A stretch of 64,000 nt of DNA from Clostridiaceae bacterium (GCA_011390155.1 JAABSW010000001.1:58953-122952); one strand, 5' to 3'; shown: positions 4,916 to 63,204, counted from the stretch's first letter. The notes: generated by a model from the sequence alone, not told the origin. Program-made: numbers and translations.

Positions 4916-5557
4916 ATGAACATGGTCACATTGGAACAGGTAGAAAAACTGAGAGAAAAGACGGGTATTTCCTACGAAGAAGCAAAACGAGTGTTGGAGC
5001 AAACACAGGGTGACTTGCTGGAAGCTGTTATACTGCTGGAGAGAGAAAATAAAATAAAAGCGCCCAGGGACGGAGGCACTTATCATTCCGGGGAAAACGC
5101 AAGACAGGAGAACAGTGAAAAAACGCAGGATCAAACTAGAAAAAAGAAAGCAAAAGCGGAACAAAAAGAAGACAGTTTGTCTTTCGGGGAACTGGTGGGC
5201 AGCTTCTTTAACTGGCTGGGAAAAGCATTTCACAAGGGAAACACCAACAATTTTGAAGTGGTGAAGGATGGTAAAAATCTCATACGAATTCCCTTGACGG
5301 TACTGGTATTGTTACTGATCTTTGCATTTTGGATTGTTATTCCCCTGTTAATCATCGGATTAATTATTGGCTTTCGTTATCGTTTTGCAGGGCCTGATCT
5401 TGAAAAAACACATGTGAACAAAGCCATGGACACCGTTTCAGATGTTACCATGAAAGCGGTGGACTCAGTGGTGGATGCAGCAGAAAGTTTTTCCAGAGAC
5501 ATAAAAAAAGGCAAGGGTGAAGAATCAAATGAGGAAGAATCAGATTCTGATTATTGA
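4916..5557 (+). CDS. DUF4342-like membrane protein with N-terminal UBA/EF-Ts-N-like domain
   Basis: VTLEQVEKLREKTGISYEEAKRVLEQTQGDLLEAVILLE, then a K/E-rich linker, then a hydrophobic hairpin (IPLTVLVLLLIFAFWIVIPLLIIGLIIGF). RBS AAGGAGG at 4906-4912; the start could instead be the ATG at 4922. Confidence 0.6.
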   Translation: MNMVTLEQVEKLREKTGISYEEAKRVLEQTQGDLLEAVILLERENKIKAPRDGGTYHSGENARQENSEKTQDQTRKKKAKAEQKEDSLSFGELVGSFFNWLGKAFHKGNTNNFEVVKDGKNLIRIPLTVLVLLLIFAFWIVIPLLIIGLIIGFRYRFAGPDLEKTHVNKAMDTVSDVTMKAVDSVVDAAESFSRDIKKGKGEESNEEESDSDY

Positions 5558-6221
5558 AGATGAGGAAAAAATTGCCAGGTTTGTTGAGCTGGAACTGGGT
5601 TATGAGGGTTATGAGGTTGAGAAGGCACTGGATGGCAGGGACGGGCTTGCGTTGGTCAAAGCCCGCCCCTTTGATTTGATTTTATTGGACATTATGTTGC
5701 CTGGACTCAATGGTATTGAAGTGCTGAGACGCATCCGCCAGTTTTCAACTGTACCTGTCATTTTGTTAACTGCCAGGGATGCTGTGGTGGATAAAGTGAC
5801 CGGTCTGGACGGAGGAGCAGATGATTACATCACCAAACCCTTTGCCATTGAAGAACTTTTGGCAAGGATCAGGGTTTGCCTCAGGAGCAGAAACGGCAGT
5901 TTGGAAAGCCAGAAAGATGCCCATGTGTTTATAGCAGGGGAACTACGACTGGACCCTGAAAAAAGAACGTGCTGGATGGGAAGCGAATCACTGGACCTCA
6001 CCAAAAAGGAATTTGATTTATTACAATGCCTGCTGGAGAATAAAAACATTGTCATGAAACGAGAAACACTGCTGAATAAAATATGGGGTTATGATTTTGG
6101 CGGTGAAACCAATGCGGTTGATGTATACATACGTTATTTGCGGATAAAAATTGAAGAACCTTACCACCAAAAAATCATCCATACCATACGTGGTGTAGGG
6201 TATGTGATCCGGGATGAATAA
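5529..6221 (+). CDS. OmpR-family response regulator
   Basis: Receiver domain (ILIIEDEE..., DLILLDIMLPGLNG, ITKPF) plus winged-helix output (LTKKEFDLL..., IHTIRGVGYVI). Confidence 0.9.
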   Translation: MRKNQILIIEDEEKIARFVELELGYEGYEVEKALDGRDGLALVKARPFDLILLDIMLPGLNGIEVLRRIRQFSTVPVILLTARDAVVDKVTGLDGGADDYITKPFAIEELLARIRVCLRSRNGSLESQKDAHVFIAGELRLDPEKRTCWMGSESLDLTKKEFDLLQCLLENKNIVMKRETLLNKIWGYDFGGETNAVDVYIRYLRIKIEEPYHQKIIHTIRGVGYVIRDE

Positions 6222-7704
6222 AATGAGAAAGCCATCTACCAAACCTGACAAAACCCTATCGGGAAAAGTGCGTTCATCACTGGTATTGAAACTGAATGTG
6301 AAAATGACAGGTATGATGATGTCTGCTTTTTTAATCATTAACCTGTTTATCAGCATTCTTTTTTTGGGTGTGGTCATTTGGAAAGCTGATGAAGGTGTGC
6401 AACGTTATATCAATACGCTGGGTATTCCCCAAATATATGAAGAAACCCAAAATGCAGAGGGGTTCGGTTACCGGATTCAGCGGGTGGATGCTATAGGCAG
6501 AGGAGTTGAGTTCCCTGCACCCCTTCAGAGGATCATGGCCATTGAGGCAGAAGATACCCGTCGATGGATCACAACCCCGGGCCTATTACCCTGGTCGGGT
6601 TTGGGCCATCGAATAAGAAACACGTATTACTATGCGGCCTTTACCCAAAACGGGAGCAGTTATCAAATCAGTTATAGATTGGAATCAGATATTAAAATGT
6701 TTGCCACTTTGTTGCTGCTATTAGTGGCATTTGAAATCCTATACCTGTTAAGCAGCCTGGGCAGCAACACAAAAGTCCTGCGTAAAACCTTAAAGCCATT
6801 GACTGACCTGGCAGAAACTGCACAGATTCTTCAGAAAGACATGGTGGAAGCGGGAAGATACGACCGAGGTGCAGAGCTAAAAACACTGGCAGGGGCTCTT
6901 GGTGACATCGATGTGGACAGGCTGGATCGACAAATTGCAGTTGGCAGCACTCAACATGAATTGAAGGATTTGGCTACAGCCATAAACGATATGCTGAACC
7001 GGATCAACCAGTCTTACCAGACCCAAGTTCGTTTTGTGTCAGATGCTTCCCATGAATTGCGTACCCCAATCTCAGTGATCCAGGGTTATGTGAACCTCCT
7101 GGACAGATGGGGGAAACAGGATGAAAAAGTGATGCAGGAATCCATTGATGCCATAAAAAGTGAGACGGACAACATGAAAAACCTGGTTGAACAACTGCTG
7201 TTCCTTGCAAGAGGTGATAATGAAACCATGCAGCTGCATCGTCAGCCATTTGATGTGTGCCTTGTGGTGGAAGAAATTATCCGGGAGACAAAACTCATAG
7301 ACCCACATCATGTGTTCCAATTGAGACTGCCGGCAACTGCTGAAATCATCGGAGATAAACAATTGATTAAACAGGCAATTCGCATCTTGGTGGACAACAG
7401 CATAAAGTATACTCCTTTGGGAGAAACCATATCACTACAGGTAGCTGGGGATTCCAAAGAAATTCAGATCCGGGTTCAGGATAATGGTATTGGTATTCCA
7501 CCTGGGGATGTAGCATACATCTTCGATCGTTTCTATCGTTCCGACGATTCAAGGGCCAGGAAAACAGGTGGTGCCGGTCTGGGACTGGCCATTGCAAAAT
7601 GGATTGTAGAACGTCACAATGGTCATTTTCAGGTGGTTAGCCGGGTAGACATCGGCACCAGAATTACAGTTGTCTTACCAGTTGATGAACATCAATCATC
7701 TTAA
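6214..7704 (+). CDS. Sensor histidine kinase (two TM segments, HAMP, HisKA, HATPase_c)
   Basis: H-box FVSDASHELRTPIS, N-box LVDNSIKYT, G-boxes DNGIGIP and GGAGLGLAIAK. Overlaps the regulator stop by 8 nt. Confidence 0.9.
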   Translation: MNKMRKPSTKPDKTLSGKVRSSLVLKLNVKMTGMMMSAFLIINLFISILFLGVVIWKADEGVQRYINTLGIPQIYEETQNAEGFGYRIQRVDAIGRGVEFPAPLQRIMAIEAEDTRRWITTPGLLPWSGLGHRIRNTYYYAAFTQNGSSYQISYRLESDIKMFATLLLLLVAFEILYLLSSLGSNTKVLRKTLKPLTDLAETAQILQKDMVEAGRYDRGAELKTLAGALGDIDVDRLDRQIAVGSTQHELKDLATAINDMLNRINQSYQTQVRFVSDASHELRTPISVIQGYVNLLDRWGKQDEKVMQESIDAIKSETDNMKNLVEQLLFLARGDNETMQLHRQPFDVCLVVEEIIRETKLIDPHHVFQLRLPATAEIIGDKQLIKQAIRILVDNSIKYTPLGETISLQVAGDSKEIQIRVQDNGIGIPPGDVAYIFDRFYRSDDSRARKTGGAGLGLAIAKWIVERHNGHFQVVSRVDIGTRITVVLPVDEHQSS

Positions 7705-7723
7705 TAAACATATAAAATATTTT

Positions 7724-7757
7724 ATCCTTCCGGCAGACATTAAGCGGGAGGATTTTT
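7724..7757 (+). terminator. Rho-independent terminator after the histidine kinase
   Basis: 9-bp stem ATCCTTCCG / CGGGAGGAT (one G-U pair), 12-nt loop, then TTTTT. Confidence 0.6.
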
Positions 7758-7875
7758 CATGAAATATACTTATTAAATGTTAAATAAATAACAATAATAA
7801 AGAAATTAGCATATAATTATAAAGAATGTGGGTCCCTGTCTTTGGATGGATTTTCATATTATTTTGTGGAAAGTG

Positions 7876-7904
7876 TTGACATAACAAACAGACAGGCGTA
7901 CAAT
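7876..7904 (+). promoter_or_regulatory. Sigma-70-type promoter for the hydrogenase-like operon
   Basis: TTGACA (7876-7881), 17-nt spacer, TACAAT (7899-7904). Lies about 100 nt upstream of the GTG start at 8004. Confidence 0.6.
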
Positions 7905-8003
7905 TAAACTGATTAGTTAGAAAGGTTTGAATATTTCCATATGTTTTAAAGTTAAATTATTAACAATAAAGGAGCCGTATCAACAAGATAAGGAGGTGTC
8001 AAA

Positions 8004-8501
8004 GTGAGTCAAAGTACGTTGTGTGAAGTTGAAAACATGCAAGAGGAGGAACAATACCGGTTGTTGGATCAGGTAATTGAAGATTATGAGGGTATGGAAA
8101 CAAACCTGGTGCAGGTGTTGCACTACGCCCAGTCAATCTTTGGGTACCTGTCCATGGCAACACAACGGTATATTGCAGAAAAGATGGAATTACCTCTCTC
8201 GAAGGTGAGCGGAGTTGTCAGTTTTTATTCCTTCTTTTCCACCATGCCCAAGGGACGACATACTATCAGCATCTGCCTGGGAACAGCCTGCTATGTCAGA
8301 GGAGGTAAGAAGATTATCGATAAGTTGAATGAATTGCTAAGCATTGATGTGGGGGAAACCACTGAAGATTTACGGTTTTCCATGGAGATCAAGCGATGTA
8401 TCGGAGCCTGTGGACTGGCACCGGCAATGAGTATTGATGAGACAGTTTTCAAACGGGTTAATCCCAATCGGATCAAAAACATACTTGAGCAATATGAATA
8501 G
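8004..8501 (+). CDS. NuoE/HydC-like thioredoxin-fold [2Fe-2S] subunit
   Basis: Cys pattern ICLGTACYVRG...CIGACGLAP is typical of NuoE/HydC. RBS AAGGAGGTG precedes the GTG start. Confidence 0.85.
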   Translation: MSQSTLCEVENMQEEEQYRLLDQVIEDYEGMETNLVQVLHYAQSIFGYLSMATQRYIAEKMELPLSKVSGVVSFYSFFSTMPKGRHTISICLGTACYVRGGKKIIDKLNELLSIDVGETTEDLRFSMEIKRCIGACGLAPAMSIDETVFKRVNPNRIKNILEQYE

Positions 8502-8510
8502 GAGGTGAAA

Positions 8511-11500
8511 ATGATGCTAAGAGACGATTTGCTTCACATGCGTGATGAATACCTGGAAAAAGTGAATAAGTATGAATGGGTGGTTGCCATCTGTTCTGGG
8601 GCCGGATGCATATCATCAAAATGTGGTGAAGTGAAGGAGGCTTTTGAACAGGCACTTGAAAAGCATGGTATCTCGGATCGGGTGCTGGTCAAGGTGACAG
8701 GTTGTATGGGGATCTGTGATGCAGGGCCAATGATAATGGTATCGCCGGAACAGGTACTCTATTGCCACCTTGAACCGCCTATGATGGATGCCTTGGTGGA
8801 AGGACACTTTCTGCAAAGGAAAATCATGGAGGAAATGACTTTCTACTACGCCAGGGAAGACAAGTACATTCCATACCTTAAAGACCTTCCATTCTTTAAG
8901 GGACAGGAAAAAGTTGTGCTTAAGAATTGCGGCGAGTTGGATTACCGGTCTCTGGAAGAATATATTGCACGGGACGGTTTTTTTGCACTTGAAAAAGCAC
9001 TTCACACCATGTCACCGGAGGAAGTCATTGAAGAAATAACAGAATCAGGGTTAAGGGGCAGGGGTGGCGGAGGTTTTCCCACTGGGCTTAAATGGAAATT
9101 TGCAGCCCGAAACAAGAGCGATCAGAAGTTCATGATTTGTAATGCTGACGAAGGAGACCCAGGGGCATTTATGGACAGGAGTCTGCTGGAAGGGGATCCT
9201 TTTAATATCATTGAAGGGATGCTCATTGGTGGATATGCCATTGGTGCTTCTAGAGGCTATGTGTATGTGAGGGCGGAATATCCCGTTGCCATAGAGCGAT
9301 TGGAAGAAGCCATTGGAAAAGCAAAGGAAGTTGGTCTCTTGGGGAATCGTATTCTTGGATCATCATTTGCCTTCGACCTTGAAGTGCGTATTGGTGCAGG
9401 CGCCTTTGTGTGTGGGGAGGAAACAGCCCTGATTGCTTCCGTGGAAGGCAAGAGGGGAGAACCGAAGCAAAAACCACCCTATCCTTCAGATGCAGGGTTA
9501 TCGGGGAAACCAACAGTCATTAATAACGTGGAAACCTTGGGCAATGTGTCAACCATTATCTTGAAAGGTGCAGAGGCTTTTGGTAAGCGGGGAACGGAAA
9601 AAAGCAGAGGAACCAAGGTGTTTGCTTTGGCAGGTGCCATCAATAACACCGGACTGGTGGAAGTGCCCCTGGGATTGACTTTGGGAGAAATTCTTTTCGA
9701 CATAGGAGGCGGCATACCCAAGGGCAAAAAGTTCAAAGTGGCACAAACCGGAGGACCTTCCGGCGGTTGTATTACTGGAGAAAACCTTAATGTTCCCGTG
9801 GATTATGAATCCCTTTCGGAGCTGGGTGCCATCATGGGATCCGGGGGCCTCATCTGCATGGATGAAGATACTTGCATGGTGGATATGGCCCGTTACTTTA
9901 TGGAATTTGTGCAGGATGAATCCTGTGGTAAATGCCTGGCATGTCGGGTGGGAACCAGACGGATGCTTGATATTTTGGACAGAATCACACAGGGGCAAGG
10001 CCAGGAAGGAGATGTGGAGTTACTGATAGAGTTGTCAGAAACCATAAAAGACACCGCATTATGTGGCCTGGGACAAACAGCTCCCAACCCGGTCTTAAGT
10101 ACCATACGGTATTTCAGGGATGAATATGACCAGCACATAAGAGATCATTACTGTCAGGCAGGTGTGTGTGCAGAGCTCTTTATTTCACCCTGTGAAAACG
10201 CTTGTCCTGCCCACGTGAATGTGCCTGGGTATGTATCCCTGATTGCCAGTGGACGTCCGCTGGACGCGTACCGACTGGTGAGACAGGAGAATCCACTGCC
10301 GTCAGTTTGTGGTCGAATTTGCACACATCCCTGTGAGGGAAAATGCAGGCGAACTCAACTGGATGAACCCATCGCCATCAGCGATTTGAAGAGATACGCT
10401 GCTGATGAAGCAATGAAACTGGAGAATGGGGTTCCCGATCCGGTGCTGCCTAAGAAAGACAAGTCCGTTGCCATCATCGGAGCAGGTCCTTCTGGATTGA
10501 CCTGTGGCTACTACCTGGCCAAGCTTGGTTATGACATTACCATTTACGAAAAACATGAACTGCCAGGCGGCGTATTGGCTTATGGGATTCCGGAATATCG
10601 GTTGCCCCGGGATGTACTGAAAAAGGAAATTGATGCCATTAAACGGGTGGGAGTCAAGATTAAGACCAATGTTGAAATTGGTAAAGACATGTCCTTTACT
10701 CAATTAAAGGATCTGCATGATGCCATCTATATCAGTACCGGAGCCCATGGTTCGAGACTTGCCGGTATTCCTGGCGAAGACTTGGAAGGTGTGTATAAAG
10801 GACTTGAATTTTTACGCCACGCCGGCGAATTAGACCAGGACGCTATGAAAGGCATTGTTGCCGTCATCGGTGGTGGAAGCACTGCCATGGATGCCGCCAG
10901 GGTTTGCCTGCGCAAAGGGGCGGATGAGGTGCATATATTCTACCGACGCACCCAGGAAGACATGCCAGCTCATAAACGAGAAGTACAGGAAGCCTTGGAA
11001 GAAAAAATTCATGTTCATGACCTATGGCATCCGATATCCATCATAGGCCAGAACAAGGCAGAAAGTATAAAGCTTCAGAAAATGATCACAAAAGGCTTTG
11101 ACCGTGAGGGTCGTAACCAGGTGGTGCCCAGTGAAGGTGAAATCATGGAATTCGAAGCAGACCATATCATCGTGGCGGTGAGCCAGCACACGGAAATCGA
11201 ATTTGCCAAACCACATAAGTTTGACCTGACCAGAATGGATACGTTTATAGTGGACGATAAAACCCAAATGACCAATGTGGAAAATGTTTTTGCAGGCGGA
11301 GACGTTGTGCGAGGTTCAAATGTGGCTATATTGGCCATTGCTGATGGCAAAAAGGCGGCCAGGTCCATCGATGTAAACCTGGGAGGTACAGGTGAACTGT
11401 ATAAGGGAGAACCCATTGAATTTCCAATGGAGATTGATGACTCTGAGTTGGAAGAACATCCCCGTTTCCCCATGGATTTTCTACCGCCGGAAGAAAGGGT

Positions 11501-11591
11501 CAACAATTTTGATGAAGTTGCTTTCCGTTATCATCGATTGAATGCCATGGCGGAAGCCATGCGTTGTCTGCGGTGTGACTATCGTTTATAG
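8511..11591 (+). CDS. NuoF/HydB-like flavoprotein fused to a C-terminal GltD/NfnB-like NAD(P)H:FAD oxidoreductase
   Basis: N-terminal [2Fe-2S] module (CSGAGC...GCMGICDAGP). NuoF motifs GLRGRGGGGFPTGLKW, ICNADEGDPGAFMDR, ESCGKCLACRVG and CGLGQTAPNP. GltD-type region follows: CENACPAHVN...CGRICTHPCEGKCRR, VAIIGAGPSGLTCGYYL, VAVIGGGSTAMDAAR. 1026 aa from the ATG at 8511. Confidence 0.85.
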   Translation: MMLRDDLLHMRDEYLEKVNKYEWVVAICSGAGCISSKCGEVKEAFEQALEKHGISDRVLVKVTGCMGICDAGPMIMVSPEQVLYCHLEPPMMDALVEGHFLQRKIMEEMTFYYAREDKYIPYLKDLPFFKGQEKVVLKNCGELDYRSLEEYIARDGFFALEKALHTMSPEEVIEEITESGLRGRGGGGFPTGLKWKFAARNKSDQKFMICNADEGDPGAFMDRSLLEGDPFNIIEGMLIGGYAIGASRGYVYVRAEYPVAIERLEEAIGKAKEVGLLGNRILGSSFAFDLEVRIGAGAFVCGEETALIASVEGKRGEPKQKPPYPSDAGLSGKPTVINNVETLGNVSTIILKGAEAFGKRGTEKSRGTKVFALAGAINNTGLVEVPLGLTLGEILFDIGGGIPKGKKFKVAQTGGPSGGCITGENLNVPVDYESLSELGAIMGSGGLICMDEDTCMVDMARYFMEFVQDESCGKCLACRVGTRRMLDILDRITQGQGQEGDVELLIELSETIKDTALCGLGQTAPNPVLSTIRYFRDEYDQHIRDHYCQAGVCAELFISPCENACPAHVNVPGYVSLIASGRPLDAYRLVRQENPLPSVCGRICTHPCEGKCRRTQLDEPIAISDLKRYAADEAMKLENGVPDPVLPKKDKSVAIIGAGPSGLTCGYYLAKLGYDITIYEKHELPGGVLAYGIPEYRLPRDVLKKEIDAIKRVGVKIKTNVEIGKDMSFTQLKDLHDAIYISTGAHGSRLAGIPGEDLEGVYKGLEFLRHAGELDQDAMKGIVAVIGGGSTAMDAARVCLRKGADEVHIFYRRTQEDMPAHKREVQEALEEKIHVHDLWHPISIIGQNKAESIKLQKMITKGFDREGRNQVVPSEGEIMEFEADHIIVAVSQHTEIEFAKPHKFDLTRMDTFIVDDKTQMTNVENVFAGGDVVRGSNVAILAIADGKKAARSIDVNLGGTGELYKGEPIEFPMEIDDSELEEHPRFPMDFLPPEERVNNFDEVAFRYHRLNAMAEAMRCLRCDYRL

Positions 11592-11604
11592 GAGGTGAAA
11601 TCAA

Positions 11605-13428
11605 TTGGTAAACATCACAATGAACCGTAAAAGAATCACAGTTCCCCAGGGAACAACCATACTGGAAGCAGCAAAGAAAAATCACATCAAGATTCCTCAT
11701 CTTTGTTACCTTGAAGATGTGCATGAATCTGGATCATGCCGTGTGTGTGTGGTGGAAGTTGAAGGTATGAAAAACCTGCAGGCTTCCTGTATCACCCAGG
11801 CAGCAGAAGGTATGGTCATTGACACCAACAGCCAGCGGGTCAGATCAGCGCGTAAAATTCTGTATGAATTGCTTCTTTCAGACCATCCAAAAGACTGTCT
11901 GGTGTGCGGTCGCAACAATCACTGCGAATTGCAGGAACTTGGCGAATTGGTTCAATTGGAGGAAAGCAGGTTTGACGGTGTTCACTCAAAGTCTCACAGG
12001 GATTTGAGTTCTTATGCCATTGAAAAGGATGATGAAAAATGCATTTTATGCCGTCGATGTGTGACTGTGTGCAATGAAATTCAGGGCGTGGGCATATTTA
12101 ATGTTCAAAACAGAGGGTTTGGTTCCAGTATTGGAGGTGGAATGGAGTTGCCCCTTGGAGACACCACCTGCACCAATTGTGGGCAGTGTGTTACCGTTTG
12201 TCCCGTGGGCGCATTGAAAGAAAAGGATGCCACACAGAATGTCTGGGAAGCACTGAAAAACCCTGATGTGGAAGTGGTTGTCCAAACGGCTCCGGCAGTG
12301 CGTGTAGCACTGGGTGAAGAATTTGGAATGCCGGCTGGATCCAACGTGACGGGTAAGATGGCCAGGGCACTGGATGATTTAGGATTCAATCATGTTTTTG
12401 ATACCAACTTTGCTGCGGACCTGACCATCATAGAAGAAGGAACAGAATTACTGCTTAGGTTGGTAAATCATTTGCATCACCAGGGAGCCATTACCGCTGA
12501 ACAGGTGGAAAAAACAGGCTTACCATTATTGGAAGAAGCGCCGGCCCTTCCCATGATCACCAGTTGCAGTCCAGGTTGGATAAAATTTGCAGAACATACC
12601 TACCCGGAACAACTAAAACATTTGTCCACCTGTAAATCGCCCCACATGATGCTGGGCGCTTTGGTTAAAGATTATTACGCGAAACAAATCAACAAAGATC
12701 CCAAGGATATTTTTGTGGTTTCCATTATGCCTTGTACCGCTAAAAAATACGAAATTGAAAGACCGGAGATGATGAATGGTGGTACCAGAAATGTGGATGC
12801 CGTATTAACCACGCGGGAAATGGCTAAAATGATCAAAGACGCCGGCATCGATTTTATTACCCTGGAAGATAGGGAATTTGACAATCCATTGGGGATTTCA
12901 ACAGGAGCTGCAGATATTTTTGGGGTGACAGGTGGCGTGATGGAGGCAGCACTGCGCACGGTGTATGAGTTGGTAACGGGCCGGGAAATCCCCTTTGACA
13001 AACTTAGAGTGGAACCCATGAAAGGTTTGGATCGGATTAAAACCGCCACCCTAACCATAAAAGATCCCATTGAAACCTATCAGTTTTTGGATGGCGTTGA
13101 AGTTAGTGTGGCCACCACAAGTGGGTTGTTGGGAGCAGTAACCTTGTTGGATGAAATTGAGGATAACGCCAGTCCACATGTGTTTATTGAGGTGATGGGT
13201 TGCCCGGGTGGCTGTATCAGTGGAGGCGGACAGCCGCGAATGACCACCCAGCACATCCGGGAAATGCGCATGCAGGGACTATACCGGGAAGATGAGGCGA
13301 AAGTCCTTCGGAAATCTCATGAGAACCCTTTCATTACAGAAATCTACGAAAAATACCTGGAGAAACCTTTGGGGCATCTTTCTCATGAATTATTGCACAC
13401 GACTTACGTGCCCCGACAAAAGAGATAG
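11605..13428 (+). CDS. [FeFe]-hydrogenase HydA-like large subunit with variant H-cluster motif 1 (TSCSPGW)
   Basis: N-terminal 2Fe-2S and 4Fe-4S domains (CRVCVVEV, CxxCxxCxxxCP repeated twice). H-domain motifs MITSCSPGW (canonical form is TSCCPxW), MPCTAKKYE and EVMGCPGGCISGGGQP. TTG start 7 nt after AGGAGGTG. Confidence 0.85.
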   Translation: MVNITMNRKRITVPQGTTILEAAKKNHIKIPHLCYLEDVHESGSCRVCVVEVEGMKNLQASCITQAAEGMVIDTNSQRVRSARKILYELLLSDHPKDCLVCGRNNHCELQELGELVQLEESRFDGVHSKSHRDLSSYAIEKDDEKCILCRRCVTVCNEIQGVGIFNVQNRGFGSSIGGGMELPLGDTTCTNCGQCVTVCPVGALKEKDATQNVWEALKNPDVEVVVQTAPAVRVALGEEFGMPAGSNVTGKMARALDDLGFNHVFDTNFAADLTIIEEGTELLLRLVNHLHHQGAITAEQVEKTGLPLLEEAPALPMITSCSPGWIKFAEHTYPEQLKHLSTCKSPHMMLGALVKDYYAKQINKDPKDIFVVSIMPCTAKKYEIERPEMMNGGTRNVDAVLTTREMAKMIKDAGIDFITLEDREFDNPLGISTGAADIFGVTGGVMEAALRTVYELVTGREIPFDKLRVEPMKGLDRIKTATLTIKDPIETYQFLDGVEVSVATTSGLLGAVTLLDEIEDNASPHVFIEVMGCPGGCISGGGQPRMTTQHIREMRMQGLYREDEAKVLRKSHENPFITEIYEKYLEKPLGHLSHELLHTTYVPRQKR

Positions 13429-13461
13429 CAGCAGTTGTATGAACTAGGAGGTGACAGGTTG

Positions 13462-13977
13462 ATGTTGGTTGAAGGGGAAAGAAGAACTGAAAAAATAACA
13501 AAATCTGCTGTGTTGCTGTCACTGGCTCTCATTTTCCAGATAGGATTCACACCCTTTGCACAGCCTGTGGTGGGCCCTTTGGTAAACATGGTGTTGCTAC
13601 TGGCAGTGATCACAGTAGGTCCTGCCACTGCCTGTTTCATCGGGTGTCTGACTCCCATGGCGGCTTACGCACTGGGGATCATGCCCATTTTACCCATCGT
13701 GCCTGTGATCATGCTGGGAAACACACTCTATGTGTTAACATTTTTCATATTAAAAAATATAAATTTGGTGGTCGGTATTGCAGGAGCCGCGATGGTAAAA
13801 ACAATCCTGATGACTGTGACGGTTCGGTTGTTGGCAATATACCTTTTTCCTGCGTTACCTCCACAGGTCATCGCCGCACTTTCCATTCCGCAATTGTACT
13901 CAGCACTATTGGGAGGTGGTATGGCTTTTTTGATTAGCAGTTATCTTCCAAAGAAAATGGTGCATGACCAGAGATAA
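13462..13977 (+). CDS. Small polytopic membrane protein, ECF-transporter S-component-like (tentative)
   Basis: About 171 aa with 5-6 hydrophobic helices. RBS AGGAGGTG lies 8 nt before the ATG at 13462. No adjacent ECF A/T genes. Confidence 0.45.
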   Translation: MLVEGERRTEKITKSAVLLSLALIFQIGFTPFAQPVVGPLVNMVLLLAVITVGPATACFIGCLTPMAAYALGIMPILPIVPVIMLGNTLYVLTFFILKNINLVVGIAGAAMVKTILMTVTVRLLAIYLFPALPPQVIAALSIPQLYSALLGGGMAFLISSYLPKKMVHDQR

Positions 13978-14145
13978 CAGGCGTAGTTACTTAATGGACG
14001 GAGGTGTGGTGTTTGATAACATGAAACCATACCTCTGTTTATTTATTTGTTAGCACACTTTCTTGAATCAAAGAGGTGAAAAGGGGCATAATCATAAAAG
14101 AACCATTTTTGATACAACATTCACTATTAAAAAGGAAGTGGCCAG

Positions 14146-16824
14146 ATGAAGTGGTTTGACATGGAGTGGAACCAGGTGATGGATGAAATGAAAGTGGATT
14201 CCGACACCGGATTATCCCAGGCTGAAGCGGCTAAAAAACTGCTGAACACCGGACCAAATAAAATCAGTGAAAAACCACCTGCCAGTCTGCTGAGTTTGTT
14301 TATATCTCAGTTGAAAAACGCGTTAATCTATGTGTTGTTGGCAGCTGTCGTTGTTACCCTGGTTATTGGAGAGTACATCGATGCGGTGATTATCCTGTTG
14401 GTGGTGGTGTTAAACGCCACCATTGGGGTGGTGCAAGCCCACAAAGCGGAACAGGCAATCGCAGCCCTCAAGCAAATGACTGTGGGGAAGGCATTGGTAC
14501 GCCGTAATGGTCAGGTGGAAGAGATCAACACTGAAAAATTGGTGCCGGGGGATATTGTATTACTGGAAGCCGGTCGTTTGGTGCCCGCAGATCTACGTTT
14601 AATTGAAAGCATCAACCTTCAAATTGATGAATCAGCATTGACGGGAGAGTCGGTACCCACAGAGAAACAAACCCTGCCTATTGACAAAGGTTCGAACCCT
14701 GGAGTAGGCGATTTAACCAACATGGCTTTCATGTCTACAACGATAACCTATGGACGGGGTGAAGGGATTGTTGTGGGAACAGGCATGAAAACAGAGATTG
14801 GAAAAATTGCGGACATGCTTCACGAGTCGAAAGAAACCCTGACACCTTTGCAGAAACGGCTGGAAGAATTGGGAAGAACTTTGGGACTACTGGCGCTGGG
14901 TATTTCTGGTCTTATATTGATAGTGTCCTTATTACAGGGAAGAGACTTTTTCGATATGTTTCTCACAGCCATCAGCTTGGCAGTGGCGGCAATACCGGAA
15001 GGTTTACCAGCCATCGTTGCCATCGTACTGGCTTTGGGTGTTACCAGAATGTCAAAAATCAATGCCATCGTGAGAAAACTGCCAGCGGTTGAAACCTTGG
15101 GGTCAGTCAGTATTGTGTGCACTGACAAAACAGGGACGCTGACTCAAAACCGCATGACAGTCACCCATCATTACATTGATGGACAACTAAAGAAAATGCC
15201 GCATGCTGATGACTCTGATGGTAGTGAGTCTGAAGATGATGCATTACAGGCATCTGATGCAGAACGAATGATGATGAAAACCCTGGTACTGTGTGCGGAC
15301 GCTACCCTGGAAGATGGAAAAGAGACGGGTGATCCCACAGAAATTGCAGGCCTGGCCTGGGCAAAAAGATATGGTGTCTATTGGAAGAATCTGGTCAGTC
15401 AACATGAGCGGGTGGGAGAAAAACCCTTTGATTCTGAACGGAAATTAATGTCCACGCTGAACAAAGAGCAGGATGACTACATGGTTCACACAAAAGGAGC
15501 TGTTGATAACCTGTTACACATTACCACCCATGTAATGATGGGCAACGAAGTGATTCCCCTGACACAAGAATTAAAAGATAACTATAACCAGATGGTGGAA
15601 CAACTTTCTGCTGACGCATTACGGGTGTTAGGAGCAGCGTATAAAGTAACGAAAGAAAAAATAGAACCTGAAGAGATGGAGAAAGACTTGGTTTTACTAG
15701 GATTGGTTGGAATGATCGACCCTCCCCGCCCGGAGGTGAGAGACGCCATTGAAGAAGCAAAAGCCGCAGGCATTACACCGGTTATGATCACAGGAGACCA
15801 CCAGCAGACGGCGGTTGCCATTGGTAAAGAACTGGGAATAAACACGTCCATAGAACAGAGTATTACCGGTGCAGAAATAGATGTCATGGCCCAGGATGAG
15901 CTTCAGAATAATATTAATCAGTACCGTGTTTTTGCAAGGGTTTCACCAGCGCATAAGGTAAAGATTGTCCAGGCTTTTCAATCACAGGGGTATGTGGTGT
16001 CAATGACAGGGGACGGGGTGAATGATGCTCCTTCCTTGAAGATGGCCGACATTGGAGTCGCCATGGGTATCACAGGGACTGATGTCTCGAAAGGTGCCAG
16101 TGACATGGTACTGATAGACGATAATTTTTCAACCATCATCCGTGCAGTACGGGAAGGCCGAATCATTTATAATAACATCAGAAAATCGGTGTTGTTCTTG
16201 TTGTCCTGTAACTTGGGAGAAGTGGTGGCAATTTTTGCAGCCATTTTACTAGCCTGGCCAGTGCCTTTGTTGCCCACACAAATCTTATGGATCAACCTGA
16301 TCACAGATACGCTGCCTGCCATTGCCCTTGGAATTGATCCGGAAGAGCCTGGATTGATGCAGAAAAAGCCCAGACCACCAGAGGAAAGTATCTTTGCACA
16401 TGGTGCTATAAAGCGTGTTGTTCTTGGTGGTGTGCTGATCGGTGCTTTGACCCTGGCTGCTTTTTATTATGGTTTGTACGAACATGGCTATCACATGGAT
16501 GCCCGAAATATTCCGGAAAATGTAATGACCTATGCCAGAACAATGGCCTTTGTGGTGCTAGCTGGTACCCAGCTCTTTTATTCCCTGGCAATGCGCAGCT
16601 CCAACAGATCTATTTTTGCCATTGGTATCTTTAGTAATCCTTATTTAATTGGCGCCATGGCAGCAGGGTTTGCGTTACAGTTGATGGTTATTTCAGTACC
16701 ATTTCTGTCACGGGCTTTTAAGGTACAGATGCTGTCCTTGTCCGACTGGCTTCTGGTCTTTGGTTTGTCGGTGATCCCACTAATTTTCAGTGAACTGTTT
16801 AAATTATTCCGGCGTGATCTATAA
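14146..16824 (+). CDS. P-type (E1-E2) cation-transporting ATPase, Ca2+-ATPase-like
   Basis: CTDKTGTLTQN phosphorylation motif, TGES, MITGDH and MTGDGVNDAPSLK. 892 aa with about 10 TM segments. Confidence 0.9.
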   Translation: MKWFDMEWNQVMDEMKVDSDTGLSQAEAAKKLLNTGPNKISEKPPASLLSLFISQLKNALIYVLLAAVVVTLVIGEYIDAVIILLVVVLNATIGVVQAHKAEQAIAALKQMTVGKALVRRNGQVEEINTEKLVPGDIVLLEAGRLVPADLRLIESINLQIDESALTGESVPTEKQTLPIDKGSNPGVGDLTNMAFMSTTITYGRGEGIVVGTGMKTEIGKIADMLHESKETLTPLQKRLEELGRTLGLLALGISGLILIVSLLQGRDFFDMFLTAISLAVAAIPEGLPAIVAIVLALGVTRMSKINAIVRKLPAVETLGSVSIVCTDKTGTLTQNRMTVTHHYIDGQLKKMPHADDSDGSESEDDALQASDAERMMMKTLVLCADATLEDGKETGDPTEIAGLAWAKRYGVYWKNLVSQHERVGEKPFDSERKLMSTLNKEQDDYMVHTKGAVDNLLHITTHVMMGNEVIPLTQELKDNYNQMVEQLSADALRVLGAAYKVTKEKIEPEEMEKDLVLLGLVGMIDPPRPEVRDAIEEAKAAGITPVMITGDHQQTAVAIGKELGINTSIEQSITGAEIDVMAQDELQNNINQYRVFARVSPAHKVKIVQAFQSQGYVVSMTGDGVNDAPSLKMADIGVAMGITGTDVSKGASDMVLIDDNFSTIIRAVREGRIIYNNIRKSVLFLLSCNLGEVVAIFAAILLAWPVPLLPTQILWINLITDTLPAIALGIDPEEPGLMQKKPRPPEESIFAHGAIKRVVLGGVLIGALTLAAFYYGLYEHGYHMDARNIPENVMTYARTMAFVVLAGTQLFYSLAMRSSNRSIFAIGIFSNPYLIGAMAAGFALQLMVISVPFLSRAFKVQMLSLSDWLLVFGLSVIPLIFSELFKLFRRDL

Positions 16825-27536: not shown

Positions 27537-29042
27537 ATGATGAAGTATATCAGTTCCAGAAGCAAGCAGGAACCAAATATGGCAGGTAAAAATGCAGCCC
27601 AGGCCATCATTAAAGGAATCGCTGAGGACAAGGGACTTTTTGTTCCGGAAAAAATGCCTCAATCATTGGGTGATATGGGTTTATTGACCGGGAAAAATTA
27701 TAAAGAAATTGCCTATCTGGTGCTTTCAAGATTTCTTCCGGACTACACAGAAAAAGAACTGCAGGAATGCATTGACTGTGCCTATGATGAGCAATTTGAA
27801 TCAGATAAAATTGTACCCCTTGTGAAGGGAGGCGGTGCTTATTTTCTGGAACTGTATCACGGTCCGACGGCTGCTTTTAAAGACATGGCCTTGTCCATTC
27901 TGCCTCATTTGCTGACAACAGCGTTGAAAAAAGAAAAAATTGAAAACAAAATTGCCATTTTAACAGCCACTTCCGGCGACACGGGGAAGGCAGCCCTGGA
28001 GGGATTCGCTGATGTAGATGGTACTGAAATCATCGTTTTTTATCCTCATGTGGGTGTCAGTCAGGTGCAGGAACGGCAAATGACTGTGCAAACAGGGAAC
28101 AACGTTCATGTTTTTGGTATAAAGGGAAACTTTGATGATGCCCAGGCAGCCGTTAAAAAAATGTTTAACGACCCTTGCCTGGCCACTGAGCTGGAAGAGA
28201 AAGGTTGGCAGTTATCATCTGCCAACTCCATTAACATTGGCAGGCTTGTGCCACAGGTGGTGTATTATGTATGGGCTTATATCAAATTACTTGAACAGGG
28301 AATTATTCAGCCGGGAGAAAAGATCAACGTGGTGGTGCCTACTGGTAATTTTGGTAATATTTTAGCCTCCTATTATGCCAGGGAGATTGGAATACCAATC
28401 GGTAAATTTATTTGTGCCTCCAACAAAAACAATGTGTTGACAGATTTTATCAACACAGGGGTGTATGATGCGAAGCGTGAGTTTTATGTCACCAGCTCAC
28501 CCTCCATGGACATACTGGTATCCAGTAACCTGGAACGGTTACTTTACCATCTCTCAGGGAACAATGGTCAACTGGTGGCTTCATTGATGAAAGATTTGGA
28601 TGAAAAGAAAAAATTTGAAGCAAGCGATAACATTCGGGTGGGTTTAACAGAGTTTTATGGGGGTTTTGCCACAGAAGAAGAAACCACGGTTGCCATTGCT
28701 GAGCTCTATCAGGGAGATCATTATTTAATGGACCCCCACACAGCGGTGGGATATAAAGTCTATTCAGATTATGTGGAAAAAACTGGTGACACAACGCCCA
28801 CGGTAATTGCGGCAACAGCAAGTGCCTACAAATTCTCTGAAACAGTGGTGAACGCTTTGGGCTTACCTTCCCAGATTGATGGCTTTAAAGCGATCATCCA
28901 ATTGAAAGAGGCTACTGGGGTAAGCGTTCCAAGAGGTTTGCGGGGTTTAGATAAAAAACCTGTTCTTCACAATCGTGTAGTGGAAAAATCTCAGATCCCT
29001 GAGGCTGTAAAACAATCTTTATCCGATGACTACCACCGATAA
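27537..29042 (+). CDS. thrC: Threonine synthase (long form)
   Basis: YHGPTAAFKDMALS PLP-lysine motif and TSGDTGKAA. Start is the ATG 1 nt after the upstream stop. Confidence 0.85.
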   Translation: MMKYISSRSKQEPNMAGKNAAQAIIKGIAEDKGLFVPEKMPQSLGDMGLLTGKNYKEIAYLVLSRFLPDYTEKELQECIDCAYDEQFESDKIVPLVKGGGAYFLELYHGPTAAFKDMALSILPHLLTTALKKEKIENKIAILTATSGDTGKAALEGFADVDGTEIIVFYPHVGVSQVQERQMTVQTGNNVHVFGIKGNFDDAQAAVKKMFNDPCLATELEEKGWQLSSANSINIGRLVPQVVYYVWAYIKLLEQGIIQPGEKINVVVPTGNFGNILASYYAREIGIPIGKFICASNKNNVLTDFINTGVYDAKREFYVTSSPSMDILVSSNLERLLYHLSGNNGQLVASLMKDLDEKKKFEASDNIRVGLTEFYGGFATEEETTVAIAELYQGDHYLMDPHTAVGYKVYSDYVEKTGDTTPTVIAATASAYKFSETVVNALGLPSQIDGFKAIIQLKEATGVSVPRGLRGLDKKPVLHNRVVEKSQIPEAVKQSLSDDYHR

Positions 29043-29226
29043 GACGCCTGTTGATTGTAATCATCTTGCAGTGAGGGGGAACTTTCCAGACCTGATAAAT
29101 ACACAGCTATCGATATTATCCCCTGAGAATGTTATTTTATGTTCCTTAGGGGTATTTTCACGGTAGTGAGCCTTTCAAAAAGCCTTTTGTTTTTTAGAAA
29201 AAAAATCAGGTAAAGGGGGAAATGAT

Positions 29227-31263
29227 GTGAAACGTATGGAAACCACCTGTGGTTATTGTGGTTGTGGGTGTGGCATCTATGTAAACATGGCGGATGATGG
29301 TACCATGTTGGGAATTACACCTAGTTATAACCATGTGGTGAGCAAAGGAAAATTATGTTCCAAGGGGTGGCACGGGTTTGCTTTTGTGAGGGATTCAAGG
29401 CGCCTGTCCAACCCCCTCATAAAACAGGAAGATGGTACTTTTAGGGAAACATCTTGGGAAGAAGCCCTTGAATTTGCAGCCAATGGTTTGAAATCAGCCA
29501 TGACCGGTGGTGACAACACTGATGCTATTGGTGTGATTTCGTCTGCCCGGTGCACAAACGAGGAGAATTTTCTCATGGCAAAACTGGCCAGAGCCGGACT
29601 GAAAACCAGTAGTGTTGACCACTGCGCACGTCTCTGACACAGCCCCACGGTGGAAGGTCTTTCTACCTCCTTTGGCGCCGGCGGTGCCACCAACACGATG
29701 AATGATATTAGCGATGCAGAATTGATCATGGTTATTGGATCCAACACCACAGAGCAGCATCCTTTGGCAAGTACCAGGATTTTTGAAGCCCTGGAAAAAG
29801 GTGCGGAACTGTATGTCATTGACCCACGAATGATTCGACTCACTGATTTTGCTCATGGCCATGCCATCATTGAACCGGGTACCAACCTGCCCATGATCAA
29901 TGCCATGATTCATGTAATTATTGAAGAAAACCTGATGGACGAAGCATTTATCAAAAACCGCACTGAAAATTTTGAAGAAATGAGAGCTTCTGTGGTTGAC
30001 TGCACACCGGAGTGGGCAGAAGCGATCACCCACGTACCTGCAGATACCATCCGTCTATTTGCCCGGAAATACGCTACCACTGACAAAGCCATGATCATCT
30101 TTACCATGGGGGTGACACAGCAAACCACAGGGGTTAAAAGTATTCGTGCACTGGGAAACCTGGCCATGCTTACCGGCCATGTGGGCCGGCCGTCAACGGG
30201 TATCAACCCGCTGCGAGGTCAAAACAATGTACAGGGAGCCGGTGACATGGCAACTCTTCCTGATTTTCTTCCCGGTTACCAACGACCTGAATGGCCGGAA
30301 ACAAAAGAACGATTTACCAAAGCATGGGGAGATGTTTCCTGCCTGCGGGGCAACACCATTATTGATATGTTTAACCTGATGGAAGAAGGTAAGATGAAGG
30401 CCGCTATTATAGTGGGTGAGAACCCGGTGCTTTCCGATCCGGACCAACTTCATACCATGCATTGCCTGGAAAAATTACCTTTTCTTGTGGTGCAGGATAT
30501 CTTTATGACCGAAACATCGCAATACGCCGATGTCATATTGCCTGCTGCCAGTTTTTTGGAGCGGGACGGCACGTATACGAACACAGACAGACGTGTACAA
30601 TTGATTCGAAAAGTCATTGAACCAGTGGGCAACTCCCGTCCGGATTGGTGGATTATCAATGAACTCATGAAACGGATCGGCATGGATGTAGATTACAAAT
30701 CTCCCAGTGAGATCATGGATGAGATCAATGAAACAACTCCCATATACGGAGGTATCACCCATGATCGGATACAGGAAGTGGGGATCCAGTGGCCTTGCCC
30801 AACAAAAGACCACCCGGGCACTCCTATCTTACATGTGGGTGAGTTTATAAGAGGCAAAGGTCTTTTTACCGTAAATGATTTTGAACGAATTGGCGACCAG
30901 CGCAGCGAAGAATTTCCCTTCTTCCTGACGACGGGTCGGGTCACCCACCAGTACCATACCGGGACCATGACACGGAAGGTGTGGACACTGGACAGGGAAT
31001 ATCCCCATGGATTTGTGGAAATTAACACAAAGGATGCAGAAGACTTGGGCATCAAGATGCACCAGGAGGTACGCATCACCTCGGCCAGGGGAAGCATCAC
31101 AGCACCGGCCATGGTCACAGACCGAATCAAGGAAAAAACAGTGTTTGTGCCGTTTCATTTTGCTGAGTCACCAGCCAATCGTTTGACAGGCCAGAACCTG
31201 GACCCTATTATTAAAATCCCCGCTCTGAAAGTATCGGCGGTTAGAATTGAGGTGGCACAATGA
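29227..31263 (+). CDS. fdhA: Selenocysteine-containing formate dehydrogenase catalytic subunit (molybdopterin oxidoreductase); TGA 29635-29637 read as Sec
   Basis: Track ORFs 29227..29637 and 29650..31263 are in the same frame. The junction reads VDHCARL-U-HSPTVEGLSTSFGAGG, matching the FDH active-site context ARVUHGPSVAGL. N-terminal TCGYCGCGCG is the 4Fe-4S motif. Confidence 0.9.
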
Positions 31264-37714: not shown

Positions 37715-37734
37715 AAGGGGAGGAGGCAGATCTG

Positions 37735-43682: not shown

Positions 43683-44054
43683 ATGATGAAAATAGCCATT
43701 CCGGCAGATGATCGGTCTATGGATACGGTTGTCTGTCCTTCTTTTGGAAGATCTCCTTACTACCTGATTTATGATAGTAAGGTTAACGAACCGATTTTTA
43801 TTGAAAATAAAGCTGCTGGAAGTCAGGGAGGTGCAGGGATTCAGGCCGCTCAGATTTTGGTTGATCAGAAAGTGCAGGCAGTGCTGACGCCAAGGTGCGG
43901 TAAAAATGCAGCAGATGTATTGAAGGCTGCAGGCATCAAACTCTATAAGTCGCGGAAGGTTTCCCTGAAAGAAAACCTTGAGGCGTGTATTGCGGGCCAA
44001 TTGGAATTATTGGAAGACATTCATCCTGGATATCATAAACATGGAGGAAGGTAG
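43683..44054 (+). CDS. NifX/NifB-C-terminal-like (dinitrogenase FeMo-cofactor-binding fold) small protein
   Basis: MKIAIPADD...CPSFGRSPYYLIYD...VQAVLTPRCGKNAADVLKAAGIKLY. Confidence 0.75.
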   Translation: MMKIAIPADDRSMDTVVCPSFGRSPYYLIYDSKVNEPIFIENKAAGSQGGAGIQAAQILVDQKVQAVLTPRCGKNAADVLKAAGIKLYKSRKVSLKENLEACIAGQLELLEDIHPGYHKHGGR

Positions 44055-44055
44055 C

Positions 44056-45760: not shown

Positions 45761-45792
45761 ACAACATTGAACATAATGGAGGCATCATAAAT

Positions 45793-49280: not shown

Positions 49281-49335
49281 AGTAGCTGATAAGTGCAAAA
49301 GCACAATCAATAGAGAAAAATCAGGAAGGGGCATC

Positions 49336-53384: not shown

Positions 53385-53410
53385 AACCGGCCTGGTTCAG
53401 GCCGGTTTTT
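53385..53410 (+). terminator. Intrinsic-terminator-like hairpin inside the leader of the giant gene (possible attenuator)
   Basis: AACCGGCCTG-GTT-CAGGCCGGTT followed by TTT. Lies 115 nt upstream of the ATG at 53525. Confidence 0.55.
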
Positions 53411-53524
53411 GCGTTGGTGGGTCGGCGGACTACTGATTTGCCAGGGGGGGTGGGCGAGTTCATACCAAACAGGATCTTTACCTGTCGTGCGGTGTTTCAC
53501 GTACTCTGGACAAGGAGGGAAAAA

Positions 53525-63194: not shown

Positions 63195-63204
63195 TCCTTA
63201 TCTG

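Follow-up and report, generated by a model that had tools for sequence, protein, structure and literature searches.

Introduction

The closest described relatives of the locus analyzed here are flavin-based enzymes of the Bfu type, of which HydABC and StnABC/NfnABC have known structures. The trimeric HydABC hydrogenases (A. woodii, 7Q4V; T. kivui, 8A6T; T. maritima, 7P5H) are built on a core with flavin mononucleotide (FMN), an N3-type cluster, an N-terminal [2Fe–2S] cluster, a Zn-hinge, a GAFMDR motif and the [2Fe–2S] cluster of HydC, and the C-terminal B3/B4 domain of HydB is the ferredoxin-reducing branch (PMC11829005, PMC12018979). In StnABC/NfnABC (S. ovata, 8OH5; C. saccharolyticus, 9BOV; T. 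sibiricus, 9N5U), which share this B/C core family, ferredoxin is reduced by the B subunit, in which B3/B4 is retained, and a GltD-type cassette follows the N-terminal [2Fe–2S] domain of a NuoG-like subunit that lacks an H-cluster. The GltD-like part of StnC comprises residues 102–565, and StnB retains two C-terminal [4Fe–4S] sites (PMC7483475, PMC10482914). The Stn/NfnABC structures place bifurcation at B1–FMN–C1, with the flavin adenine dinucleotide (FAD) of the cassette ending the electron wire and not bifurcating (PMC10482914, PMC11829005). Here, we describe an operon at positions 8004–13,428 of a 64,000-nucleotide stretch of Clostridiaceae bacterium DNA (GCA_011390155.1, JAABSW010000001.1:58953–122952; hereafter the window), in which elements of both systems are combined. 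We are confident that it encodes a cytoplasmic, heterotrimeric HydABC/Bfu-type [FeFe]-hydrogenase in which the ferredoxin-type C-terminus of HydB has been swapped for a StnC/NfnA-type cassette.

Fusions of this kind are mentioned in three papers. In Vallitalea guaymasensis L81, peg.3894–3896 were annotated as a trimeric [FeFe] hydrogenase with an enlarged β subunit, in which the two-[4Fe–4S] domain is replaced by a GltD domain (PMC6163223); this is the architecture found here, noted as an annotation remark without enzymology. A HydB with a glutamate-synthase (GltA) domain was modelled in the archaeal group F hybrid hydrogenase, a five-subunit [FeFe]/[NiFe] enzyme, also without enzymology (Greening et al., PMC11216029). 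Our literature search, which was not exhaustive, found no enzymological or structural study of a HydB::GltD hydrogenase. A survey of Bfu enzymes selected B subunits by their ferredoxin-type 4Fe–4S InterPro domain, and its text mentions neither GltD nor glutamate synthase (PMC9304861). The HydB::GltD design is nonetheless a widespread variant of HydABC/Bfu, previously noted in passing; that it is common and already remarked upon had been overlooked in a preliminary description of this locus.

The hydB::gltD operon

The operon consists of three genes, all on the + strand, with the following parts (residue numbers of the fusion are counted throughout from the GTG at 8505).

8004–8501, +: hydC, NuoE-like subunit of 165 aa with a [2Fe–2S] cluster (C1 in Bfu nomenclature)
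8511–11,591, + (open reading frame (ORF) 8505–11,591): hydB::gltD fusion, 1026 aa from ATG 8511
8574–8801, +: thioredoxin-like [2Fe–2S] domain at the HydB N-terminus (PF01257 over residues 24–99; Cys30, Cys35, Cys67, Cys71)
8919–10,139, +: NuoF-type core with the FMN/NAD(H) site, GDPGAFMDR and an N3-type [4Fe–4S] cluster
10,134–10,169, +: Zn-hinge (B2 site) segment HIRDHYCQAGVC, the end of canonical-HydB homology, with the fusion point directly after it
10,170–11,588, +: predicted GltD/NfnA-type cassette of ~470 residues with two [4Fe–4S] clusters, an FAD fold and an NADP(H) fold (Fer4_20 and Pyr_redox_2)
11,605–13,428, +: hydA, 607 aa, TTG start with AGGAGG ahead
11,605–12,249, +: HydA N-terminal FeS domain with one [2Fe–2S], one His-ligated [4Fe–4S] and two [4Fe–4S] clusters
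12,250–13,428, +: HydA H-cluster domain (Fe_hyd_lg_C, E = 6e-87; Fe_hyd_SSU)

The hydC gene starts at a GTG preceded by a ribosome-binding site, AAGGAGG, at 7990–7996. Its product matches PF01257 (2Fe-2S_thioredx) with E = 2.4e-47 as well as HoxE/NuoE models (Pfam, NCBIfam), and carries the [2Fe–2S] ligands of a BfuC subunit (IPR002023) at Cys91, Cys96, Cys132 and Cys136. For hydB::gltD the likely start is ATG 8511, which has AGGAGG ahead; the product from this codon is 100% identical to a 1026-aa NCBI protein encoded on a 391-kb contig. Only 9 nt separate the hydC stop from ATG 8511, and 13 nt lie between hydB::gltD and hydA.

The preliminary description had reported three tightly linked genes and a 1026-aa middle protein in which a complete NuoF/HydB unit runs on into a GltD/NfnB-type unit in place of the usual C-terminal ferredoxin domains. 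The ORFs, the domain scans and the position of the cassette, where no Fer4 match is found, agree with this account, and every cofactor motif that it quoted was located: GRGGGGFPTG at 185, ESCGKCLAC at 472, GAGPSG at 659, GGGSTAMD at ~789 and YRR at 813. The kinship that it saw with the HydABC and Stn/Nfn families is borne out by PDB alignments of both halves of the fusion.

HydB core and Zn-hinge

Pfam domains follow one another along the fusion in the order 2Fe-2S_thioredx (24–99), Complex1_51K (178–349), SLBB, NADH_4Fe-4S (460–544), Fer4_20 (549–638) and Pyr_redox_2 (654–948). The three domains of a NuoF core are represented by PF01512 for FMN, PF10589 for the [4Fe–4S] cluster and PF10531 for SLBB, the last at 24 bits, under its cut-off of 27. 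The FMN/NAD(H) site comprises GRGGGGFPTG at 185 and GAGAFVCGEETAL, and the N3-type [4Fe–4S] cluster would be held by Cys474, Cys477, Cys480 and Cys520. Against the PDB, residues 26–559 match the B subunits of bifurcating enzymes, with A. mobile NiFe-HydB (7t2r_B) at 722 bits and A. woodii HydB (7q4v_B) at 712, followed by C. saccharolyticus NfnB (639), T. kivui HydB (634) and S. ovata StnB (627). An Ala and a Met near FMN, within GAFMDR, have been flagged as specific to bifurcating B subunits (Schut et al., PMC9304861). In the GDPGAFMDR motif of the fusion, A221 and M223 correspond to the Bfu-specific A202 and M204 of A. mobile HydB; F182 has no unambiguous mapping.

The fusion point can be placed closely. 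The Zn-hinge segment aligns with HIRDKKCPAGVC of A. woodii and HIRDKKCPAGAC of T. kivui, and the final stretch in common with canonical HydB, ...FRDEYDQHIRDHYCQAGVCAELF, aligns to ...FRDEYEAHIRDKKCPAGVCKHLL of A. woodii, which supplies the His/Cys/Cys ligands of the Zn (B2) hinge. The homology to HydB does not continue past ...HIRDHYCQAGVCAELF, around residue 559. The hinge ligands of the fusion are His544, Cys550 and Cys555, and the first Cys of the cassette, Cys563, lies 8 residues past Cys555. Because HydB homology ends at the hinge and the cassette begins 8 residues later, the cassette takes, in chain topology, the place of the B3/B4 domain. Neither a Fer4 Pfam match nor a CxxCxxCxxxCP motif, as expected of the ferredoxin-type B3/B4 domain (IPR017896) of Bfu enzymes, was found in the fused subunit; a Fer4_20 dicluster of the DPD domain II type stands in that place. 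As judged by these alignments, the cassette replaces exactly the C-terminal 2×[4Fe–4S] (B3/B4) domain of HydB, starting right after the Zn-hinge.

The N-terminal [2Fe–2S] and Zn/B2 hinge ligands are both present, a Bfu trait that is missing from non-bifurcating homologues. Such relatives, namely S. wolfei Hyd1ABC, Nqo1 and FdsB, lack B2–B5 and do not use ferredoxin (PMC9304861). The S. wolfei enzyme, a NuoE/NuoF/HydA trimer, resembles the present one in having no ferredoxin arm but differs in its B subunit, since here B5 and the hinge ligands are kept and a second nucleotide site is gained.

The GltD-type cassette

The candidate cluster ligands of the cassette are Cys563, Cys567, Cys602, Cys606, Cys610, Cys614, Cys1021 and Cys1024, together with Lys629. 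An FAD fold (GxGxxG; GAGPSG at 659) and an NADP(H) fold (GxGxxA; GGGSTAMD at ~789, with YRR at 813–815) complete the module. Its best PDB matches over residues 561–1025 are the NfnA subunits of C. saccharolyticus (9bov_A, 408 bits) and T. sibiricus (9n5u_A, 370 bits) and S. ovata StnC (8oh5_C, 329 bits), ahead of the large subunit of NfnSL (5jca_L, 309 bits), T. maritima NfnB (4ylf_B, 307 bits) and GltD (2vdc_G, 223 bits).

Two further features bear on the type of the cassette. The proximal cluster of StnC has a strictly conserved Lys ligand, K170, where NfnSL has Glu (PMC10482914, PMC11829005); Lys629 of the fusion aligns to this residue and to K170 of C. saccharolyticus NfnA. In addition, an RCLxC Cys pair is located at the C-terminal end of the cassette, as in StnC/NfnA, whereas in NfnB it is N-terminal: residues 987–1025 align, weakly, to residues 5–43 of 4ylf_B, and the Fer4_20 match starts at profile position 18. 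From the top PDB matches, the Lys ligand and the position of the RCLxC pair, the cassette is classed by its sequence as Stn/NfnA type.

This assignment bears on a proposal of the preliminary description, that the FAD of the cassette bifurcates like that of NfnSL, which would put two bifurcation sites in one polypeptide. The module is indeed homologous to NfnB/NfnL (307–309 bits), with two [4Fe–4S] clusters, FAD and an NADPH site as in NfnSL/NfnAB (T. maritima, 4YLF; P. furiosus, 5JCA), and the Arg of GIPEYRL, equivalent to NfnB R201, is conserved. However, the same Arg lies 6 Å from N5 in StnC without supporting bifurcation there (PMC10482914). NfnSL, with its bifurcating FAD, has a Glu ligand and an N-terminal Cys pair (PMC10482914), in place of which the cassette has Lys and a C-terminal pair; NfnSL also requires a PyrK-like NfnA/S partner, for which the operon has no gene. 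The nearest relatives of the module are the StnC/NfnA cassettes, whose FAD has been shown to be non-bifurcating (PMC10482914, PMC11829005). A second bifurcating flavin is therefore very improbable, and the HydB::GltD enzyme probably has one bifurcation site, not two.

The type of cassette does not make the enzyme an Stn. Identity with StnABC was rejected on the published subunit make-up of Stn and on the PDB alignments: the StnC cassette (residues 102–565) belongs to a subunit without an H-cluster (PMC7483475, PMC10482914), whereas here the cassette is on HydB, B3/B4 is gone, and the A subunit is a true HydA with motifs L1–L3. The label 'Stn-type' given in the preliminary description thus does not apply, and the locus differs from StnABC in the very respect that the description had named as decisive. 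Its other concern, that the GltD part might be unable to bind flavin or NADPH, finds no support in the GxGxxG, GxGxxA and YRR motifs, which are intact and invariant.

The locus also has a feature of the putative 'glutamate synthase-linked' [FeFe]-hydrogenases (HydDB group A2), namely genetic linkage between an [FeFe] hydrogenase and a GltD-type NAD(P)H module. The rule for that group demands a neighbor with GltA/GltD-type domains and without NuoF (PMC5037454). Applying the published rule rather than HydDB itself, we find NuoF and GltD in one neighboring protein, alongside HydC, which sets the locus apart from A2; under this rule a neighbor with NuoF is indicative of A3.

An AlphaFold2 monomer model of the fusion (mean predicted local distance difference test score 79.8, predicted TM-score 0.74) is in line with the two-part architecture. 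Its first half resembles bifurcating B subunits with TM-scores of 0.85–0.95 (normalized to target length) and its second half resembles NfnA/StnC. No PDB chain spans both halves, the highest TM-score of the model against the PDB being 0.53 when normalized to query length.

HydA

The N-terminal FeS chain and the H-domain expected of a Bfu hydrogenase are both found in HydA. Its N-terminal domain matches Fer2_4, NADH-G_4Fe-4S_3 and Fer4_7 (a Fer4 dicluster), and the protein scores 842.7 bits against NF040763 ('NADH-dependent [FeFe] hydrogenase, group A6'), for which the cut-off is 765. Motifs L2 (MPCTAKKYE, 375) and L3 (EVMGCPGGCISGGGQP, 529) are canonical, and L1 is present as the variant TSCSPGW (HydA 319–325; window 12,559–12,579), in which Ser takes the place of the second Cys of TSCCP. 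In textbook numbering this Cys is CpI C300, a ligand of the [4Fe–4S]H cluster. No hydE, hydF or hydG gene was found among the ORFs of at least 200 aa scanned in the 64-kb window, a set that comprised all but two antisense ORFs lying inside larger genes (48,666–49,430 and 53,497–54,441); the preliminary description had made the same observation. Because maturase genes are often unlinked to hydA, their absence from the window says little.

The altered L1 motif and the missing maturase genes might be taken to mean that HydA is non-catalytic, with a sensory or degenerate H-domain, and that the complex is only a transhydrogenase. We consider this extremely unlikely, given that L2 and L3 are intact, that the NF040763 score (842 bits against 765) is well past its cut-off, and that the best PDB match of HydA, A. 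woodii HydA1 (7q4v_A, 568 bits), has an identical TSCSPGW and comes from an electron-bifurcating HydABC whose structure was solved by cryo-EM (7q4v). The same motif occurs in 52 of the 56 HydA genes of the loci that were fetched; T. kivui HydA1 has TSCCPSW. Since TSCSPGW is common to A. woodii HydA1 and these 52 genes, we read it as a lineage trait with no sign of decay, and the idea that it marks an inactive HydA was rejected.

Just ahead of L1, HydA also has an insertion of ~23 residues relative to A. woodii HydA1 (HydA ~287–309; 12,463–12,531). To judge by the lengths of the H-domains, this insertion is common only to the nearest relatives, L001–L003, L009 and L030.

Conservation and distribution

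The fusion is neither rare nor confined to one lineage. All of the 120 best database matches are fusions of ~1030 aa with at least 61% identity and 97–100% query coverage. Most come from Clostridia-type metagenome-assembled genomes (MAGs); cluster members include Sinanaerobacter chloroacetimidivorans and Clostridium sediminicola, and the cluster names are generic only, such as 'NuoF' or 'FAD-dependent oxidoreductase'. Clustering at 50% reveals several more clusters of full-length fusions, at 35–47% identity. Across 138 full-length homologues, the ligands for the FeS clusters, Zn, FMN, FAD and NADP are invariant, and position 629 is Lys in all 138.

To follow the junction itself, a 196-residue query across the fusion point was scanned against one genome per GTDB species. 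At least 80 species genomes, spread over more than 12 phyla, have an intact junction, and essentially the whole query is covered in each. Among the matches listed, the closest (78%) is that of Peptococcaceae bacterium UBA5767, and the groups represented include Bacillota, Spirochaetota, Desulfobacterota/Syntrophales, Armatimonadota, Verrucomicrobiota, Planctomycetota, Chloroflexota, Actinomycetota, Omnitrophota, Aminicenantes and Lentisphaerae. Among the named carriers are Pelotomaculum terephthalicicum JT and Ca. Dichloromethanomonas elyunquensis. In a neighbor-joining tree of NuoF cores (50%-identity representatives), the fusions fall into two groups; the tree is too crude to tell one origin from two.

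Most of the 80 listed loci have the order hydC – hydB::gltD – hydA, with an H-domain in HydA, and about 12 have another A subunit. A molybdopterin subunit of the formate dehydrogenase (Fdh) type takes this place in L041, L047, L054 (where it is split at a presumed selenocysteine (Sec) codon) and L068. In L058, a Syntrophobacteraceae MAG, HydC and HydB::GltD are followed by a NuoG-like subunit and the small and large subunits of a NiFe hydrogenase, which makes this locus a bacterial NiFe analogue of the archaeal group F enzyme. Because it also serves Fdh-type and NiFe-type partners, HydB::GltD is a general module, not one specific to [FeFe]-hydrogenases. That the fused set has a distinct function is argued by its neighbors in three loci: a complete canonical hydCBA adjoins it in L035, and a second HydB-like gene lies nearby in L073 and L079.

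The range of carriers bears on a simpler view of the enzyme, a non-bifurcating hydrogenase of dual specificity in which NADH at FMN and NADPH at FAD serve the H-cluster independently, suited to syntrophic or fermentative niches with low H2. Many carriers are digester- or syntroph-type MAGs, Pelotomaculum included, the ferredoxin arm is lost, and ferredoxin-independent, NADH-dependent HydABC enzymes do exist (S. wolfei, cited in PMC9304861). The known homologues of this kind, however, have lost B2–B5 (PMC9304861), whereas in the fusions the [2Fe–2S] domain, Zn-hinge, C1 and GAFMDR are invariant across phyla, which suggests that the gating machinery is still used. We regard a dual-specificity enzyme as unlikely, and we rank coupled bifurcation above it because the hallmarks of bifurcation are kept across phyla here and lost in non-bifurcating enzymes.

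Proposed mechanism

We favor, while rating its chances somewhat below even, a Bfu-type hydrogenase that couples H2 to both NAD(H) and NADP(H), the latter in the place of ferredoxin. HydA would exchange electrons with H2 and relay them along its chain of FeS clusters to the B1/FMN/C1 site formed by HydB and HydC, where NAD(H) would react at FMN, as in every Bfu enzyme. The usual branch from C1 through B3/B4 to ferredoxin would become one that leads from C1 through the [4Fe–4S] clusters of the cassette and its FAD to NADP(H). The dicluster domain of the cassette, attached as it is 8 residues past the hinge, should be located where B3/B4 sit in HydABC and in reach of the mobile C1 of HydC. The cassette FAD would serve as a two-electron/one-electron converter at the end of the wire, not as a second site of bifurcation. 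The overall reaction would be a ferredoxin-free coupling,

2 H2 + NAD+ + NADP+ <-> NADH + NADPH + 2 H+

with NAD as the high-potential and NADP as the low-potential partner. This would allow NADPH to be formed from dilute H2, or NADH and NADPH to be disposed of as H2 when the H2 pressure is low.

The energetics are compatible with this scheme. In vivo potentials are ∼−280 mV for NADH and ∼−380 mV for NADPH, and that of H2 is −414 mV at 1 bar (PMC9304861). The mean of the NAD and NADP pools, ∼−330 mV, equals that of the H+/H2 couple near 1e-3 bar (a Nernst estimate with 29.6 mV per decade), so that, under conditions realistic for anoxic habitats, the reaction should run close to equilibrium and would amount to a meaningful bifurcation or confurcation. 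The same reasoning extends to the Fdh-linked and NiFe-linked versions, whose substrates have H2-like potentials.

The principal competitor is a four-substrate enzyme, in which ferredoxin remains a partner and the cassette is an added port for NADPH, giving a hybrid of a hydrogenase and an Nfn/Stn-like enzyme. This is near the view of the preliminary description, which had the complex couple NADH, NADPH and ferredoxin. The nucleotide and flavin sites are intact, and the whole bifurcating core (FMN, B1, C1, the N-terminal [2Fe–2S] and the Zn-hinge) is kept. Ferredoxin could also find places to dock: in NfnSL its docking site is the distal cluster of the homologous module, and HydA keeps near-surface clusters at its N-terminus. 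The ferredoxin part is nevertheless the least secure, with B3/B4 replaced. Half of the mapped ferredoxin site is gone with the domain that carries B3/B4 (PMC12018979, PMC11829005), the fused subunit offers neither CxxCxxCxxxCP nor a Fer4 match in its stead, and the Lys-type proximal cluster is that of the Stn wire, not the low-potential Glu type of NfnSL (PMC10482914). On balance, a four-substrate enzyme seems doubtful to us.

Several points weigh against NADP(H) as the substitute for ferredoxin. Activity data for any HydB::GltD member were not found in the literature. Only chain topology indicates where the cassette lies relative to C1, and the cassette clusters could instead feed B1/A1, in which case NADPH would be a second mid-potential donor, as in Stn. 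The standard potentials of NAD and NADP are equal, and the proposed bifurcation depends on the pool ratios in vivo. Finally, ferredoxin docking on the HydA clusters is still conceivable, and the GltA-like domain of the fused archaeal HydB has been suggested as the place where ferredoxin binds (Greening et al., PMC11216029), a proposal that likewise speaks for the four-substrate enzyme.

We suggest still more tentatively, as a possibility that we would not rely on, that HydB::GltD enzymes as a whole form a distinct, phylum-spanning branch of Bfu, with [FeFe], Fdh and [NiFe] versions, in which NADP(H) has taken over the low-potential role of ferredoxin and electrons from H2 or formate are bifurcated to NAD and NADP.

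Sequence context

Two further features flank the operon.

7876–7904, +: sigma-70-like promoter sequence TTGACA-17-TACAAT, ~100 nt 5′ of hydC, a consensus match only
13,462–13,977, +: small membrane protein of the energy-coupling factor (ECF) transporter S-component family (PF12822, 37 bits; cut-off 30.7)

The TTGACA-17-TACAAT sequence, present as the preliminary description had stated, matches the consensus at 11 of 12 positions and is the top-scoring site within 7400–14,300. The region contains 14 promoter-like sites, no excess over the 11.3 ± 3.7 in shuffled controls, and we accordingly rate this sequence as a plausible but not proven promoter of the operon. Further upstream, at 5517–7704, lies a pair of genes for an OmpR-type response regulator and a histidine kinase.

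The ECF S-component-like gene begins 33 nt past hydA with an AGGAGG of its own and may be co-transcribed with hydA. Among the fetched loci, a homologue at the same downstream place (30% identity) was found in the closest one, L001, only. It is therefore not a conserved part of the module, and the idea of a conserved fourth subunit or flavin importer was rejected. A flavin precursor as its substrate would be an attractive but speculative guess. A gene for a P-type cation ATPase is also found downstream of hydA.

Elsewhere in the window, the ORF at 29,650–31,263 (+; region ~29,000–33,197) matches the Molybdopterin oxidoreductase profile from its position 99 on, as well as Molydop_binding, and resembles the portion of a selenocysteine formate dehydrogenase downstream of an in-frame TGA. 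It is followed by the gene for a 645-aa FeS/NAD-binding subunit (Fer4_22, NAD_binding_1, DHODB_Fe-S_bind). At 36,425–38,822 (+) are genes of a selenoprotein glycine/sarcosine/betaine reductase, of the GrdE type (Gly_reductase) and GrdB; the GrdB ORF ends at 38,784 and is directly followed by a SECIS_4 element (38,785–38,822, 65 bits). These selenoprotein reductase genes point to an amino-acid-fermenting anaerobe. The source organism is a Bacillota anaerobe that has these genes and the formate dehydrogenase, whose reading frame suggests an in-frame Sec codon.

Three other regions stand out. At 43,978–46,986 (+), three successive ParA/NUBPL-type P-loop genes are possibly involved in metallocluster handling; two have 4Fe–4S ferredoxin inserts, and a fusion to a dinitrogenase FeMo-cofactor-binding-like domain is present in the third. 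A c-di-GMP-II riboswitch (53,318–53,401, +; region 53,318–58,732) lies directly 5′ of the gene for a 1772-aa protein with InlB B-repeat/Flg_new domains, which is probably a c-di-GMP-regulated surface protein. On the − strand at 61,539–63,518, a T-box leader (63,249–63,518, 98.7 bits) precedes a gene for a thiamine pyrophosphate enzyme (acetolactate synthase-like, 551 aa), not one for an aminoacyl-tRNA synthetase.

Implications

How Bfu-type enzymes such as HydABC and NfnABC bifurcate electrons, and what part their mobile C-terminal arm plays, are still debated. The HydB::GltD family is a natural experiment in this respect, with the core retained and the ferredoxin arm exchanged for an NADP(H)/FAD wire. 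If these enzymes do couple H2 to NAD and NADP without ferredoxin, this would be a new type of reaction in flavin-based bifurcation, and redox balances would have to be redrawn for the many carriers of the fusion among fermenters, syntrophs and uncultured lineages. The rule that a NuoF neighbor denotes an NAD/ferredoxin-bifurcating A3 enzyme would then mislabel them in metagenomic surveys. With NADP(H) in the place of ferredoxin, the family would provide a direct route to NADPH powered by H2 or formate; even as a simple NAD(P)H hydrogenase, should it turn out to be one, the enzyme would still be a useful ferredoxin-free H2/NADPH catalyst.

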